Shown here: positions 21,664 through 33,608 of the stretch, piece after piece | Numbering within the stretch: position 1 is the stretch's first letter | How the letters are laid out: each line of letters opens with the position of its first letter | IMG/VR virus record: IMGVR_UViG_3300033553_000116 | Location: 32,001 to 96,000 of that record | Strand: one strand, 5' to 3' | From: a virus | DNA: 64,000 nucleotides | The notes under the pieces: generated by a model | Seen by the model: the letters and a program-made list of their open reading frames with translations, nothing else | The model's database searches: none | What the model was told of the DNA's origin: nothing | Program-made: the position numbers and the translations under genes

Positions 21664-22497
21664 ATGCGACAGTATTTAGAAGGACTACAACGTATCTTAG
21701 ATGAAGGTACGTTTCATGGAGATAGAACAGGCACAGGTACTATCTCTCGTTTCGGGGAGCAGTTACGTTTTGATTTGACAGATGGTCTCCCATTGGTCAC
21801 TACTAAGTTCACAAACTTCCGTGCCATTCAGCGTGAACTACTTTGGTTCCTTGAAGGCTCTACTAATAGCATCCGGTTAAATGAAATCGGTTCTAAGATC
21901 TGGGATGGCTGGGCTTTAGATGATGGTGACTTAGGGCCTATCTATGGTAAGCAATGGACTGACTGGGATGTCATCGACAAAGGTGAGGTAGTAACTGATC
22001 TGGAGGCTCTTTTAGAACTTTCTCAAGATGGTACTAGATTAGATGAACTTAGTCTTAATATCAGTTCTATTTTAGATAAGATTGCACTTAAGCCAAATAT
22101 CAATCAGATCCAACAGGTCATTGAAGACTTGCGTGTGAATCCACATTCAAGACGTCATTTAGTTACTGCATGGAACCCATCTGCATTGCCATCTGAATAT
22201 AAACTAACCATGACTAACGGTAAAGTTATTAAAGCTCCACTTACACCACAGGGTAACGTTGCAGAAGGTAAAGCTGCATTGCCTGCATGTCATACCTTCT
22301 TCCAGTTCTACTCTCGACTAATGTGTCTTGAAGAGCGTATGAATTATATCCCGGCTTCTAAAGTAGGGTTATATGCAAAGATCGTGGAATTCGATGAAGT
22401 ATCAGCTCAGCCATTCTTAGATGACACTGAGGCCATGGCTTTATTAGATGAGCATGATGTTCCTAAACATGCACTAAGTTGTCAGATGTATCAGCGT
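21664..22497 (+). CDS. thyA: thymidylate synthase, exon 1
   Basis: DRTGTGT, PLVTTK, ELLWFL, LGPIYG.QW, SRRHLVTAWNP, catalytic LPACH; ends ...MYQR at the intron. Confidence 0.95.
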
Positions 22498-22829
22498 TCA
22501 CATAACGAGCGCCTTTTAGCAGTAATGCTAATCGAAGAACATTCTCAAATTGCTGGGAAATCTTGCTAAGCATTTACACCACAACGTAATTTGAAAAAAA
22601 TAAGCGTGACGGTTTTAAAAAGTTAAATGATAGAGATAATCAGCAGCCAAGGGTCCATATAGGATCAAGGTTCAACGACTAGCCTTTGATAAGGTGTAGG
22701 ACCAAGTGGTCCGAAACGGGAAAGCTTCCTACTCATAGAGAGGAAGGTGATATAGTCTACTCTGCATGGTGACATGCAGCTGCACGTAATGGTGCGGGTA
22801 GTGTCTAACGAACACTATTGAATATAACG
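22498..22829 (+). ncRNA. group I intron (subgroup IA2), no homing endonuclease ORF
   Basis: P AAATTGCTGGGAAA 22547-60; Q AATCAGCAGCC 22638-48; R GTTCAACGACTAG 22670-82; S GATATAGTC 22749-57. P1 has the U22497.G22509 wobble; terminal G is 22829. Splicing restores YQR|SSD in frame. Confidence 0.93.
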
Positions 22830-26005: not shown

Positions 26006-26245
26006 ATGGATGAAGAACCAGTACTGTCTACCCCATTAAGAATTAGACCCAAGCGAGTAGTATTTCTATCAGTGGGGTCAATGTATGACCCTGAGACAAT
26101 TAAAAAAATGATAGCAGCGATGCCTAAAATTGGTACCAAAGAAGATCGGGCTAGGGGCGATAAACCCAATAACTATCTTTCTTTAGATAATAATCCTCCG
26201 TATAGAGAGTTCACTACGAAAAACAAACGCCGTAAACAATGGTAG
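26006..26245 (+). CDS. small basic hypothetical protein
   Basis: 79 aa, AAGG SD. Confidence 0.65.
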   Translation: MDEEPVLSTPLRIRPKRVVFLSVGSMYDPETIKKMIAAMPKIGTKEDRARGDKPNNYLSLDNNPPYREFTTKNKRRKQW

Positions 26246-26754
26246 GTATATCGATGGAAGTAGAAATAATCTCAGCTATAGCGGCTAACGGTGTTATAGG
26301 TAAAGAAGATGAGTTAGCCATGAAGTCTAAGGAAGACATGGCATTCTTTAAAGCGGAGACTACAGGACATGCTGTCCTAATGGGTAGGAAGACCTTTGAT
26401 AGTTTACCTGGACCTTTAATAGAAAGACTTAATATAGTAATAACCCGTAATCCAATTCACCAACCCAATCCTGTTGATGGTGTGGTTTACTCAGATGATC
26501 TTTTTGGTGTCATTAAGGGATTAGCTGACAATGGTACATATGAGCGCCTATACATAGTCGGGGGTGCTGAAATATATAAACAAGCACTTGATGCAGACAT
26601 CGTTGATAGAATGATATTAACTAGGTTCTCTGAGGGTGCTGAAGGCGATACTCATTTCCCATACTTCAATCAAGATATGTGGGACGTTGAAGATATTGCT
26701 GAGTTTAAAGGAACACCTGCGTATAGGGTGTTAGGTTACACAAGAATTAGATGA
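26239..26754 (+). CDS. folA: dihydrofolate reductase
   Basis: AIAANGVIG, EDMAFFK..T, MGRKTFDSL..PL..R.NIVITR, IVGGAEIY, EGDTHFP. Confidence 0.95.
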   Translation: MVGISMEVEIISAIAANGVIGKEDELAMKSKEDMAFFKAETTGHAVLMGRKTFDSLPGPLIERLNIVITRNPIHQPNPVDGVVYSDDLFGVIKGLADNGTYERLYIVGGAEIYKQALDADIVDRMILTRFSEGAEGDTHFPYFNQDMWDVEDIAEFKGTPAYRVLGYTRIR

Positions 26755-28136: not shown

Positions 28137-29357
28137 ATGTCAGATTTTAATCTACTAGCTTCAGCAATAGCGGATCTGTGCAATGATGGTAATGTACCAC
28201 TTGGTGAAATAGTATCAACATCAGATATCTTAACGGCATTACCCACGGATGTGGCGCGTATGTTTGAGACACCAACGGCCCTACGTTTAGCAATGACTAA
28301 GTTTGATACGTTATTAAATGTACATGGCTTTACATTTAGTCGTCCATCTGCACACGTCTGGAAATTTAAAAAGATTGAACCATCCGAATCATCTACAGTA
28401 CCTAATCCAGTTATAGGTATCCAGCAGCAATTAGATCGCATAGAAGAAACATTAGATGCCACCAACCAAACGGCTCAGCATAATCGAGAGACTGCTGATA
28501 CAAACTATTCAGTTCTAGCAACTGGCATTGCCGATATACTTAAAATGGTAAAACATATTAATATTTCCACTGCAAAAAGAGATGACATGGGTAGTCTCGC
28601 AGACCTTGCTCTCGACTTGGATGCTAAAGCCGTAAAGACTAGTGAGTTAGTAATGGACCAACTTAGTAAGGCAGATGCTTGGAAAGCAGAATTGCGCGCT
28701 ATGACAAAACATGCTAATAATGCTGTGGCTGGTATGCAAATAGGGTTAGATAGCCATATAGCAGCAACTGCTAAACATCAAGACTGGTTATATAGCGCCA
28801 CTATACAACATCATGAGAACTATATGGGTGGACTTGGAGTGGTGGAAGGTAATATCAAGCAACACTTTTCTAACTTAGTGGAAGGCATTGGTCGACCACT
28901 ATCTAACCCACTAGCCAGTATGTCTCAGGCTAAATATAAAAGATCCTCACCACATTCAAAAGTAGATATAGTGAAAACTGGTAATATTACTACCTTTCGT
29001 GGTCTGGCACATAGTGGTCGTACAACAGAGATGCTACATTATTTGGTAAACCGACGTATTGGAATTGCCAATCAGATACTTTATATCTCTAATGGTGTAT
29101 CTCCCGATAAAATGTGGAAGGATGTTAATGACACATCTAGGCAGATGGGCTTAGATAACCTACCACATGGTAATGTGAAATGTATTTCTATAAACTATAA
29201 TGTACCCTACGGCAGTGAAGACCTAGCAGATATAATCCGTAGACACTCTAACTACATAGTGTTTTTCGATATCCCTATGTCACCCTACAGTAATCTTTTA
29301 TGGTGGGATGCCAATTTCCATGACCGTGAAGTATATATCACAGAGCCATTTATATAA
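28137..29357 (+). CDS. early protein: coiled-coil plus degenerate RecA-like P-loop domain
   Basis: 406 aa; GLAHSGRTT, ILYIS, IVFFD. Confidence 0.65.
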   Translation: MSDFNLLASAIADLCNDGNVPLGEIVSTSDILTALPTDVARMFETPTALRLAMTKFDTLLNVHGFTFSRPSAHVWKFKKIEPSESSTVPNPVIGIQQQLDRIEETLDATNQTAQHNRETADTNYSVLATGIADILKMVKHINISTAKRDDMGSLADLALDLDAKAVKTSELVMDQLSKADAWKAELRAMTKHANNAVAGMQIGLDSHIAATAKHQDWLYSATIQHHENYMGGLGVVEGNIKQHFSNLVEGIGRPLSNPLASMSQAKYKRSSPHSKVDIVKTGNITTFRGLAHSGRTTEMLHYLVNRRIGIANQILYISNGVSPDKMWKDVNDTSRQMGLDNLPHGNVKCISINYNVPYGSEDLADIIRRHSNYIVFFDIPMSPYSNLLWWDANFHDREVYITEPFI

Positions 29358-29617
29358 ACCATTATTAAGTATTTTTATACTTCTAAACCTATATTGTGTA
29401 GAAAGTTTATTTCTTCTCCTTAAAGTTAAAGTTAAAGCCGTTGGGTTGTCCAAGTCAACCCAACACCTAATTCCCTCCACCCCCTTGTGGAATGATGCAA
29501 TGACCTAAGCATTTAAATGTTGACTTATGTTAACTAAGAGGTAACTCTACATCTACGGATATAGTTTTAAACGCAAGATACCCCAGAACTTCCTTATGAG
29601 TTGTGGGTCACTATCTT

Positions 29618-29678
29618 GAGGGCTGACGCGGAGCGACCGTGTCCGGAAGATATGCCTTGACCAACTTCCACCCATTCA
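29618..29678 (+). ncRNA. unknown structured RNA motif, copy A
   Basis: Shares GGAAGATRTGCCTT and an exact AACTTCCACCCATTCA with copy B; two hairpins; strand inferred from the adjacent tRNAs. Confidence 0.5.
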
Positions 29679-29940
29679 ATGTATTAGTATCTAGCAATGA
29701 TTTACCTCGACGTCTAGGTGCTAGTACATTAATCGGGGGATTGCCCTCCTCGTTATTTCGTTTGCGGACGATTAAGTTGGGCAGTATGAGTTACATGTAC
29801 CCAAATAGGGATAATCACTATGTGTAAACAAATCGTTGGGCGCTTTATTAATGCGTCGGTCCGGGGACTAGATCGCCGGTGAAAGGCTGCACCCATAATG
29901 TTGGTGCTGGGGGAGTTAGCCTACCCCCACCTTATTTTAT

Positions 29941-30015
29941 TCCGAAGTAGCTCAGTGGTAGAGCAGAAGCCTGTTAAGCTTTTGGCCGTTGGTTCGACCC
30001 CAACCTTCGGAGCCA
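29941..30015 (+). tRNA. tRNA-Asn(GTT)
   Basis: TCCGAAG/CTTCGGA acceptor stem, D arm, loop CTGTTAA, GGTTCGA T-loop, encoded CCA. Confidence 0.95.
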
Positions 30016-30022
30016 CACAACG

Positions 30023-30096
30023 TCGGACATAGCTCAGTTGGGAGAGCGGCACCTTTGCGGGTGTGATTGTCGCAGGTTCAATCCCTGCTGTCTGAC
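30023..30096 (+). tRNA. atypical or pseudo tRNA-Ala(TGC)
   Basis: Canonical D and T arms and a G3.U70 pair. The anticodon arm GCACC-TTTGCG-GGTGT has a 6-nt loop; C73; no CCA. Confidence 0.65.
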
Positions 30097-30319
30097 ACTT
30101 CATTTTCACTTATGGTAACAAGGGTTTACTGTCATTTACCTGCATCCGCCCTAAGTGAAAATTATTCTGTATGGACTTCTACGGAAGTTTGACTTACAGC
30201 TAGCTCCTGGAATGAGAATTAACTCATTGTACGTTTACCCCCGGTAGTTAGATAAATCCAAGTGGTTCTAGTTTGGTCTTGCAATCCATTAACACCCCCT
30301 AAGTAAGTGCTGTTCATAA

Positions 30320-30376
30320 GAGGCTGGTGTACCTTACGTACTCCGTGGAAGATGTGCCTTAACTTCCACCCATTCA
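30320..30376 (+). ncRNA. unknown structured RNA motif, copy B
   Basis: See copy A; immediately followed by a terminator. Confidence 0.5.
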
Positions 30377-30378
30377 TT

Positions 30379-30420
30379 AGCCAGTCACATTGCGTGACTG
30401 GCTTATTTATATATTTTTTT
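30379..30420 (+). terminator. intrinsic terminator closing the tRNA/ncRNA cluster
   Basis: AGCCAGTCAC-ATTGC-GTGACTGGCT plus T-rich tail. Confidence 0.8.
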
Positions 30421-30442
30421 ATCTTATTGCTTGGAGTTGACA

Positions 30443-30631
30443 ATGAATAATGTGGTAAATATTACCAGAGCAGCAGATAGACTAGCTGTAAAAAATAGAG
30501 AAGCTTGGGAAAGATTGCAGCCCTTTATTAATATGATTCAAGATGTACGTAAGGGTAACCGAACGGCTAAAGAACAAGAAACAGTCCAGGCTCAAAGAAA
30601 GGGAAAGTTCCTATGGCTAAACAACACATAA
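30443..30631 (+). CDS. small hypothetical protein
   Basis: GGAG SD before ATG 30443. Confidence 0.6.
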   Translation: MNNVVNITRAADRLAVKNREAWERLQPFINMIQDVRKGNRTAKEQETVQAQRKGKFLWLNNT

Positions 30632-30932: not shown

Positions 30933-31664
30933 ATGAGTTCTAAATTGACATTAAAGAAATATACTATCGACCCTATAGCCCAAGAAGAAGTTGCTTCTTT
31001 AGAGGATATGGAGAATGCTAGATGTACTACCCAGCATTCCTTGTTTGTTACAGAAGTGGAAGGTGTTCAACACTTCAAACTACATCTAGAGGACATCATG
31101 CCTGAGAAAGCGGCATTCCATGTGATACTTAATAGATTATCTCAAGCACAACAGGGTGATACGTTGGAATTACGTATACATAGCAATGGCGGCAGTACTG
31201 ATATTGGTCAGATTATTATTAACATGATTAATAATGTATTTCCTGGTCGAGCTACTGCAGTCTTGGATAACATGGGTAAATCAATGGGTGCTATTATTTT
31301 CTGTAATTGTCCTAAACGTATTGTGAATGTAAATTCAGACATCATGTTCCATTGGTATAGTGTAGGAGTTAGTGGTAAAGGAAATGAAGTCACTAGTAGC
31401 ATTGATCGAGCAAACGAAGCACTTAGGGATTTATACCAACGTTCAATGGTTGATACGGGTTTTCTAACACAGGAAGAAGTCGATAGATTGTACGATGGTA
31501 AGGATTACCCATTCGGCACAGTAGAGATGTGTCAACGTGGCATTGCTACACATGTACTAGTCAGAGGTATTGAAATCCCTGCAGTACAATACTTAGGATA
31601 CAAGTCTGAATCATTAACAGATGATGACATGGTTATATCCTATCACAGTGAAAGAAATATTTAA
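30933..31664 (+). CDS. ClpP/crotonase-like serine protease
   Basis: LRIHSNGG, GKSMGAIIF (catalytic Ser), IMFH (His), GKDY (Asp). Confidence 0.85.
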   Translation: MSSKLTLKKYTIDPIAQEEVASLEDMENARCTTQHSLFVTEVEGVQHFKLHLEDIMPEKAAFHVILNRLSQAQQGDTLELRIHSNGGSTDIGQIIINMINNVFPGRATAVLDNMGKSMGAIIFCNCPKRIVNVNSDIMFHWYSVGVSGKGNEVTSSIDRANEALRDLYQRSMVDTGFLTQEEVDRLYDGKDYPFGTVEMCQRGIATHVLVRGIEIPAVQYLGYKSESLTDDDMVISYHSERNI

Positions 31665-32657: not shown

Positions 32658-33608
32658 ATGACTAAATTTAAAGCCAAAGAGTGTGAAGAATATCCGGAGT
32701 TCTATGAGATCCCTGGGTATAGTAAACATGGCGCTAGTAAAGAGGGCGAGATACTTACTAAGAAAACTGGCAATGCTACTCTAGGTGGATTAGCTGGAAG
32801 ATATAGAAAGGTTAGCGTTTATGCCAACGATGACTCCGATGCTACCTTGCGCTATGTGCACGACTTAGTTTGCAGAGCCTTTAACGGTAAACCAAAGAAG
32901 GACCAAGTTGTGTTACACAAAGATAGTGATAGAGAGAATTGTAAAGCAGTCAATCTTAAATGGGGAGATCAGTCAGAGAACATCCAACAGATGTGGGATG
33001 AGGGACAACGTGTAAGTACTGAAGAATATAAAGGCAAGTTTGTAACCGGTAAAGATATACCACCACTATACCACATTATGTTTCCTAAGGATAAAGCTGG
33101 TACCTGGTTCCCTAAAGTTCCGGATGGTAGTGAGTTCAATGCAGAAACTAAATATACTGATGGTGACTTACCTCGTATTTCATTCTGTCCCACTATTCAA
33201 CAATGCGCACTGACTATATGGCCAATGATTGAACATATGCTTGCCAATCCAAAGGTTGGACTATTAACCTTTCAAGTATATATGCCAGAGATTTCTTCAA
33301 GCACTCAGTTTATCTCACCTAAGGAACTAACAAAAGATCACTTAGTCTGGGATGCACATGTAACTGAAGAGTGGATTACATTAGAGCCACTAGAAGTTAG
33401 GCATGTTGGATCAGTTCATATCTTTCAACCTAGTAAGAAAGACCTTGAACCTAACATGATACATCCATATGACGATAAGAAAGAACCAGTGGCACCTGCT
33501 GGACCTAAGAAGATTTCTTTTAAGTGGATTGTTAGGGAAGAAAAGGGAATTGAATCGTTTCGTGAAGAAGTCATTGAACTACAATTACCCGCATCTGCTA
33601 AATGGTAA
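32658..33608 (+). CDS. NUMOD4-HNH endonuclease fused to an ADP-ribosyltransferase-like domain
   Basis: EIPGYSK...VHDLV..AF.G....VLHKDSDREN....NL.W....N; C-terminal LYH...PRISFCPT...DA..TEEW. Confidence 0.7.
   Translation: MTKFKAKECEEYPEFYEIPGYSKHGASKEGEILTKKTGNATLGGLAGRYRKVSVYANDDSDATLRYVHDLVCRAFNGKPKKDQVVLHKDSDRENCKAVNLKWGDQSENIQQMWDEGQRVSTEEYKGKFVTGKDIPPLYHIMFPKDKAGTWFPKVPDGSEFNAETKYTDGDLPRISFCPTIQQCALTIWPMIEHMLANPKVGLLTFQVYMPEISSSTQFISPKELTKDHLVWDAHVTEEWITLEPLEVRHVGSVHIFQPSKKDLEPNMIHPYDDKKEPVAPAGPKKISFKWIVREEKGIESFREEVIELQLPASAKW

Follow-up and report, generated by a model that had tools for sequence, protein, structure and literature searches.

A three-copy structured RNA module with a predicted pseudoknot beside viral tRNA genes

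A gene-free stretch of a viral genome fragment was found in this study to contain a real, uncatalogued structured RNA module, which is present in three sense-strand copies (A, C and B, 56-61 nt each). What is new about it is the fold and not the general kind, given that other small knotted RNAs next to viral tRNAs have been described before. The motif is represented by three paralogous copies in one metagenomic genome. A preliminary description of this DNA had recognized two of them, A and B. Both read as they were given there, and their shared 3' half (GGAAGATRTGCCTT..AACTTCCACCCATTCA) is beyond chance, with 0 matches in 100 shuffles; the third copy, C (29882-29937), had been missed and was found by aligning the three gene-free segments of the locus. 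The copies had also been said to flank the tRNAs. This holds when A and C are set against B: both tRNAs lie between C and B, and A is 260 nt upstream of C.

The source genome and its RNA locus

The window, that is, the whole stretch of 64,000 nt that was analyzed, corresponds to positions 32001-96000 of the 114,246-base IMG/VR record IMGVR_UViG_3300033553_000116, which has a G+C content of 38% and is estimated to be ~41% complete. The major head protein (731 aa), like other large proteins, belongs to PHROG families typical of phiKZ-like jumbo phages, and the source virus is, judging from these predicted proteins, a distant phiKZ-like jumbo phage from a cold-spring metagenome. The nearest named phages by capsid are the Xanthomonas phages Xoo-sp14, LucasX and RTH11, at just 42-45% identity; closer capsid relatives, at 55-63% identity, occur in Logan/ENA assemblies. 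Two DNA runs from a single cold-spring metagenome study contain the phage DNA without any base difference, and because their contigs are identical they supply no natural variants of the motif. The sole RNA run of the source study contained no part of the 1.1-kb stretch described below.

The RNA locus (29358-30443, ~1.1 kb) carries no credible genes; the open reading frames overlapping it are all ≤74 aa and have no family match. The genes on both sides lie on the + strand, and this same strand carries all three copies, both tRNA genes and a strong terminator within the gene-free 1.1 kb. Directly upstream, a 406-aa protein (28137-29357, +) belongs to no Pfam or PHROG family and has no relative among 5.8 billion proteins or in IMG/VR; a language-model atlas gave weak leads to RecA/DnaB/KaiC-type ATPases (scores below 0.8). 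The neighboring 243-aa protein has no relatives in IMG/VR. A 10-bp hairpin behind the 406-aa gene (29439-29465) has a U-rich tail in the - strand reading alone, and no - strand gene ends there. Further out, the window encodes a dihydrofolate reductase (DHFR, 26239-26754), an HNH homing endonuclease (32658-33608) and, 500 nt past the downstream end of the RNA locus, a ClpP-fold head maturation protease (PHROG 26628, Pfam CLP_protease; 30933-31664, +), and it contains a full-length group I intron at 22488-22779 (+; Rfam RF00028, 75 bits).

The three copies share a common plan, in which a 5' strand RGGCU is followed by a hairpin (P1), a linker of 1-2 nt, a second hairpin (P2) and then ACC. P1 begins with G directly after RGGCU and has seven pair positions and a 5-nt loop, copy C having five solid pairs around a 9-nt loop. 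P2 consists of 5 bp (GGRRG/CYYCC) and a loop of 10-15 nt that contains GCCU in every copy. The copies and the elements around them are as follows.

29618-29678 (+): copy A, 5' strand GAGGGCU, tail CAUUCA
29625-29643 (+): P1 of copy A, 7 bp with loop AGCGA, then linker C
29645-29669 (+): P2 of copy A, GGAAG/CUUCC with a 15-nt loop containing GCCUU; ACC at 29670-29672
29678-29730 (+): long hairpin of ~17 bp, starting 8-11 nt past the ACC of copy A; z -3.3 (29670-29765)
29734-29752 (+): weak terminator-like hairpin GGGGGAUUGCCCUCC with a U-rich tail, resembling P2 and tail of copy C
29882-29937 (+): copy C, 5' strand AAAGGCU, U-rich tail reaching tRNA-Asn
29889-29907 (+): P1 of copy C, GCACC/GGUGC plus A-U, then linker U
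29909-29928 (+): P2 of copy C, GGGGG/CCCCC with a 10-nt loop containing AGCCU; ACC at 29929-29931
29941-30015 (+): tRNA-Asn (GUU) with encoded CCA, called by ARAGORN and Rfam; 5' end 12 nt past the ACC of copy C
30022-30098 (+): tRNA-like gene without CCA; ARAGORN 'tRNA-???', Rfam tRNA 44 bits
30319-30376 (+): copy B, 5' strand AGAGGCU, tail CAUUCA
30326-30344 (+): P1 of copy B, 7 positions with one U-U, loop CUUAC, then linker GU
30347-30367 (+): P2 of copy B, GGAAG/CUUCC with an 11-nt loop containing GCCUU; ACC at 30368-30370
30379-30403 (+): strong intrinsic terminator, 10 bp and a U-rich tail, 11 nt past the ACC of copy B; z -6.5

The starts of the copies are 264 nt (A to C) and 437 nt (C to B) apart, with other RNA between them. 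Copy C ends 3 nt before tRNA-Asn, and copy B ends 2 nt before the strong terminator, which closes the RNA locus. Each ACC is followed after 8-12 nt, mostly A/U-rich, by a stable helix: the ~17-bp hairpin for A, the acceptor stem of tRNA-Asn for C and the terminator for B. In the tRNA-like gene the D and T arms are good, the anticodon loop is 6 nt long (UUUGCG) and the variable region is long; ARAGORN assigns it a 2-nt anticodon, and the Rfam tRNA alignment places a deletion in the anticodon loop.

The tRNA regions of relatives were also inspected. Four IMG/VR relatives with ~48-51% capsid identity (L089-L092; G002, G005, G009 and G015) carry 8-13 tRNAs over 3-5 kb, compared with one tRNA and one tRNA-like gene in the present fragment, and these regions include gaps of several hundred bases and small open reading frames. 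In one of them (L091), a 30-nt element occurs three times (6497, 6743 and 7662). The repeats inside the tRNA regions of the relatives are tRNA-derived only.

Fold and paralogy of the three copies

The fold is best described as an H-type pseudoknot with the sequence-variable hairpin P1 inserted in its first loop, where formation of the pseudoknot itself is predicted from the pairing available in each copy. The two hairpins are supported by compensating base changes among the copies. In P1, which pairs GACGCGG with CCGTGTC in A and GGTGTAC with GTACTCC in B (one T-T mismatch), standard pairs occupy 19 of the 21 cells over three copies (one G-U, two mismatches), and six of the seven columns vary, most of them on both sides, the three sequences being unrelated. 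This agrees with the preliminary description, according to which hairpin 1 was swapped and yet kept its pairing, with the amendment that the hairpin is longer than had been noted and comprises seven positions. In P2, all 15 cells pair, and copy C differs by two adjacent A-U to G-C changes made on both strands. The G-U pairs (in P1 of A and in the pseudoknot of A and B) are compatible with the + strand only. The earlier reading of a motif structured at the RNA level is supported, on what is presumably the transcribed strand.

For the pseudoknot, in which the 5' strand would pair with GCCU of the P2 loop, 5 bp are available in each copy, with duplex energies of -7.4 (A), -7.7 (B) and -7.0 (C) kcal/mol. 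In A and B, the pairing is (A/G)(G/A)GGC with GCCUU, as the preliminary description had proposed for the loop GCCUU and the 5' letters GAGGC/AGGGC. In copy C, for which a pseudoknot is available too, the pair behind GCCU is lost and a U-A pair in front of it is gained, so that the register is shifted and 5 bp are kept. The pseudoknot letters show no variation of a kind that proves pairing, and the folding energies of P1 plus P2 are modestly below those of shuffles (z -1.4 to -2.1). An alternative closing stem, which would produce a three-way junction and which RNAfold draws for A, has energies of -6.0 (A), -1.4 (B) and -3.8 (C) kcal/mol; with energies that vary so much from copy to copy, it was not accepted as the fold that all three have in common.

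Two covariance models and one structural descriptor were built on the copies. The model from copy A alone (R1) was too sequence-bound. The model from A, B and C (R2) scores the three copies at 56-68 bits, with nothing else at E<0.1 in the window or the whole record; since MAFFT misaligned P1 of B and C, R2 is to be taken as a sequence-weighted search tool. The descriptor demands two adjacent hairpins of the sizes given above, ACC after P2 as the sole fixed sequence and a 4-bp G+C-rich pairing of the 8 nt upstream with the P2 loop. Applied to both strands of the 114 kb, it finds exactly A, B and C, all of them on the + strand, and no site in 30 shuffles; having been written after the copies were seen, it attests to the rarity of the arrangement and not to a function.

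Between copies A and B, the 5' strand, both arms of P2, the greater part of its loop and the tail ACCCAUUCA are almost the same, whereas P1 has nothing in common. Outside the motif, their surroundings align over one 40-nt block and a UACG-loop hairpin only.

29517-29556 (+): 40-nt shared block containing ACTTATGKTAAC; its local alignment with 30102-30139 beats 300 of 300 shuffles
30102-30139 (+): the 40-nt block again, immediately after the tRNA-like gene
29549-29559 and 30175-30185 (+): UACG-loop hairpin after each 40-nt block

Judging by this shared context, the RNAs that have A and B at their ends are probably diverged paralogues whose relationship extends past the motif. The 40-nt block could be a promoter or a 5' domain of such paralogous RNAs; its occurrences genome-wide lend no support to a promoter consensus, and the promoter reading was dropped. 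A degenerate copy (D, 29536-29600), directly upstream of A, may start in the 3' part of the block at 29517-29556, and another (E, 29716-29760) may include the weak terminator-like hairpin; R2 scores E at 3.7 bits only. Both look-alikes were left out of the copy count.

The near-identity of A and B save for the exchanged P1 argues for selection on the sequence of the conserved parts. Two histories are conceivable, namely an old duplication after which selection has kept the conserved letters, or a replacement of P1 as a whole, and each of them favors a functional module in which one arm is free to vary. One reading built on this pattern takes the module to serve trans-acting small RNAs as a constant scaffold, or to be a protein site, and P1 would then be the variable specificity arm; it includes a decoy that would target an RNA-binding defense protein or a host protein. 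It draws on the strong conservation of the P2 loop and tail of A and B beside a wholly exchanged P1, and on the likely paralogy of the RNAs that end in A and B. However, the flanking genes have no family and no partner protein is found among them, and we regard this reading as improbable.

The same pattern bears on the reading that there is no RNA function at all and that the copies are duplicates in decay or act at the level of DNA, for instance as recombination repeats that have mobilized the tRNA cassette, as iterons or as single-strand initiation hairpins. The occurrence in a single genome would agree with it, as would the possible degenerate copies D and E, which suggest a local history of duplication, and the bracketing of the tRNAs by A and B as direct repeats. 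It would not account for compensatory changes in two helices or for G-U pairs that fit one strand only, nor for conserved parts of A and B that stay near-identical while P1 and the surroundings have fully diverged, and no turn in GC skew is present at the RNA locus. We therefore consider an absence of RNA function quite improbable.

Searches for the motif and comparison with known RNAs

The motif had been called unrecognized, and this was borne out. A search of the 1.1-kb stretch against Rfam 15, at gathering score and at E≤10, gave no match on the motif; the two tRNAs alone passed, and sub-threshold chance matches to Qrr (E 0.44), Plastid-ycf2 and YrlA fell off the motif. Distant-mode blastn of the 1.1 kb against 50,697 GenBank phage records returned the tRNAs only. 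Four exact or degenerate pattern scans of IMG/VR gave no match (two scans) or 13 and 22 matches, among which no homologue was recognized: where their context was checked, the matches sit mostly in GC-rich DNA that has no P1-like hairpin, and the set of 22 reaches ≤19 bits with R2, its 13-contig family sitting in a 204-aa frame. A pattern scan of JGI metagenomes gave at least 120 matches, and among those listed all score ≤23 bits with R2 and lie inside long open frames; the 34 matches in GTDB species genomes come from unrelated bacteria, all at ≤23 bits. R2 found nothing convincing in the three Xanthomonas jumbo phages, where its matches lie in tRNA-free, coding-like stretches, and no match in 28 IMG/VR relatives chosen by capsid protein. 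With filters off, and together with the descriptor, it found none in the tRNA regions of the four capsid relatives or in T4 68000-75000, the region of the tRNAs, rnaC and rnaD. Within the scope of these searches, the module is lineage-specific and uncatalogued. Of the outcomes that the preliminary description had listed as refuting, a lack of covariation is contradicted, as covariation is present among the paralogues, and a lack of homologues is borne out, as none was found outside this genome; all of the covariation therefore comes from the three paralogues.

We compared the module with known structured RNAs. Hammerhead and HDV-like theta ribozymes are known next to phage tRNAs, which would agree with reading the module as a small ribozyme that cleaves itself and thereby the transcript of the tRNA operon. 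The module is compact, with a predicted pseudoknot, and its unpaired letters include an invariant CU ahead of P1 and an invariant A following P2, as those of such a ribozyme might. A hammerhead is defined by a three-way junction with CUGAUGA and GAAA cores; here, the 5' junction reads CUGACG (A), CUGGUG (B) or CUGCAC (C), a GAAA strand is lacking and the junctions measure 1-2 nt. HDV-like and theta ribozymes are defined by a nested double pseudoknot in the order P1-P2-P3-P3'-P1'-P4-P4'-P2', and the order here is pseudoknot 5' strand, P1, P2 5' arm, pseudoknot 3' strand, P2 3' arm. The preliminary description had judged that the motif fits neither these ribozymes nor tmRNA, in agreement with the Rfam blank, the core and strand order and the lack of any tmRNA call by ARAGORN. 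Considering that no Rfam ribozyme family matches even at E≤10, that CUGACG and CUGGUG stand in place of CUGAUGA, that the strand order is unlike that of HDV and that the junctions are very short, we find a self-cleaving ribozyme very unlikely.

Plant-virus tRNA-like structures (TLS) with a pseudoknotted acceptor arm are well established, and they resemble the module, for example in TYMV, in that the 3' strand of a pseudoknot is followed by A-CC. The module differs from them in lacking T, D and anticodon mimics and a terminal ACCA, and in being internal to the transcript. On the motif, no Rfam tRNA, TLS or tmRNA model matches, ARAGORN sees the two tRNA genes only, and the end reads ACCC or ACCU. 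This likeness is the basis of the reading that the stacked pseudoknot and P2, followed by A-CC, mimic a tRNA acceptor end, which would be trimmed and completed to ACCA by the host CCA-adding enzyme and would serve as a substrate of RNase P or the CCA enzyme, or as a decoy for toxins attacking tRNA 3' ends. ACC follows P2 directly in three of three copies although the tails of A and B differ from that of C, the setting is a tRNA operon, and rnaD of T4 ends in a stem and then ACCA. However, the fourth base is C or U and not A, and P2 has just 5 bp and lies 4-5 nt from the pseudoknot strand, so that nothing points to a mimic with an unbroken acceptor/T helix of 12 bp. Neither ARAGORN nor the tRNA and TLS models of Rfam see anything on the motif, and no phage CCA-adding enzyme is found in the 114 kb (~41% of the genome). 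The same 114 kb yielded no RNase III and no match to T4-type RNA ligase, the latter blank being uninformative as the control had no match either. An acceptor-end mimic is therefore rather unlikely in our view. We hold it somewhat less likely that the module represents a new functional RNA class, that is, a hairpin-bearing pseudoknot with a tRNA-like A-CC end and an exchangeable P1, which would process the tRNA operon by self-cleavage or would act as a decoy or shield against host enzymes or defense toxins that act on tRNA ends.

The nearest textbook counterparts are T4 rnaC and rnaD (species 1 and 2), which are stable RNAs from the tRNA cluster of that phage and have no known function. Like the module, they are small non-coding RNAs that lie among phage tRNA genes and share their strand, but they are single genes of 119-139 nt and not a repeated 60-nt module, and the analogy is positional only, with no similarity in sequence or model. 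In type III antitoxin RNAs (ToxI-like), repeats of ~34-45 nt stand head to tail beside a toxin gene; here, the copies are dispersed at the spacings given above, and the neighboring open reading frames have no family.

A comparison with coremin/xrRNA-C of plant RNA viruses was also made. These RNAs have a 5' hairpin of 3-5 bp with a YGAD/YGNNAD loop, a conserved 8-10-nt spacer GUUAAACUAC between the hairpins and a variable hairpin downstream (PMC6546385, PMC10520033). A loose analogy arises only if P2 is equated with their first hairpin (hp1), giving a conserved 5' hairpin, a conserved spacer of ~10 nt and a variable helix next; in addition, both are repeated beside structured RNA and both are proposed to be nuclease resistant. 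The P1 loops here are AGCGA, CUUAC and UAAUG, the P2 loops are 10-15 nt long, and the sole YGAD hairpin of the stretch sits inside the tRNA-like gene. In place of the spacer there is a P1-P2 linker of 1-2 nt, and the best match to it, GUUAGCCUAC with two mismatches, is found in the P2 loop of C only. The pseudoknot of the module would moreover join the 5' strand to the loop of the second hairpin. With neither a YGAD/YGNNAD hairpin nor the GUUAAACUAC spacer, the fold differs from coremin.

Within the same broad giant-phage group, phage 201phi2-1 produces a 5'UTR-derived small RNA directly upstream of a tRNA, and a similar RNA occurs in PAK_P3 (PMC11512511). A tRNA lies immediately downstream, as for copy C. 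This RNA, which we compared by description and not by sequence, differs in being defined by premature termination and not by a repeated fold.

The remaining comparison concerns transcription. The put antiterminator RNA of phage HK022 has two stem-loops about one base apart, and each phage has at least two copies of it, which precede terminators. Set beside it by description only, the module likewise has two adjacent hairpins 1-2 nt apart; put differs in having no loop-to-5'-strand pseudoknot and no ACC and in lying right behind the promoters of mRNA operons. This resemblance in layout, together with the hairpin and weak terminator that follow A and the strong terminator that follows B, would agree with a cis-regulatory element (a riboswitch-like aptamer or a put-like antiterminator) that sets whether polymerase stops at the next helix or terminator, and in B the 5' letters GGCUGGU could pair with GCCAGUC in the 5' arm of the terminator. 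Such an element is unlikely, as copy C is followed by a tRNA and not by a terminator, the alternative pairing of B has no counterpart in A, the junctions of 1-2 nt leave no obvious ligand pocket and no gene class is associated with the motif.

Proposed role and meaning of the module

We tentatively favor a role as a cis-acting punctuation element for processing and stability, a possibility whose functional part is modeled from the fold and its position. The module would be a structured RNA on the sense strand of a phage operon of tRNAs and non-coding RNAs that is presumably transcribed as a unit, and the knot would act in cis as 'punctuation' of the operon transcript. Being compact, it would be hard for host nucleases to pass or unfold, and might resist exonucleases or block the scanning of enzymes. 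It would in this way fix and protect the ends of the RNA pieces that are freed when RNase P or other enzymes excise the tRNAs. We favor this role because the predicted knot is compact, the copies lie at boundaries between structured RNAs, and one of them is 12 nt before an RNase P site; copy C adjoins that site, which belongs to tRNA-Asn. The small RNAs reported directly upstream of tRNAs in 201phi2-1 and PAK_P3, and the stable RNAs in the tRNA cluster of T4, also agree with it. Speaking against it, copy B stands at the 3' end of the locus before the terminator, with little downstream RNA to protect, and nothing links the motif to any particular nuclease.

Small, tightly folded RNAs have repeatedly come to light in phage tRNA clusters, T4 rnaC and rnaD being the long-standing example. 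The present locus adds, in a like position, a module unrelated to these in sequence, in a jumbo phage lineage of the nucleus-forming type that has no cultured relative. Since P1 is exchanged and P2 compensated among the copies, the three natural variants make a ready-made mutational series. A module of this kind in this place would suggest that viral tRNA operons generally require their RNA ends to be marked or protected, and that different folds serve this need.
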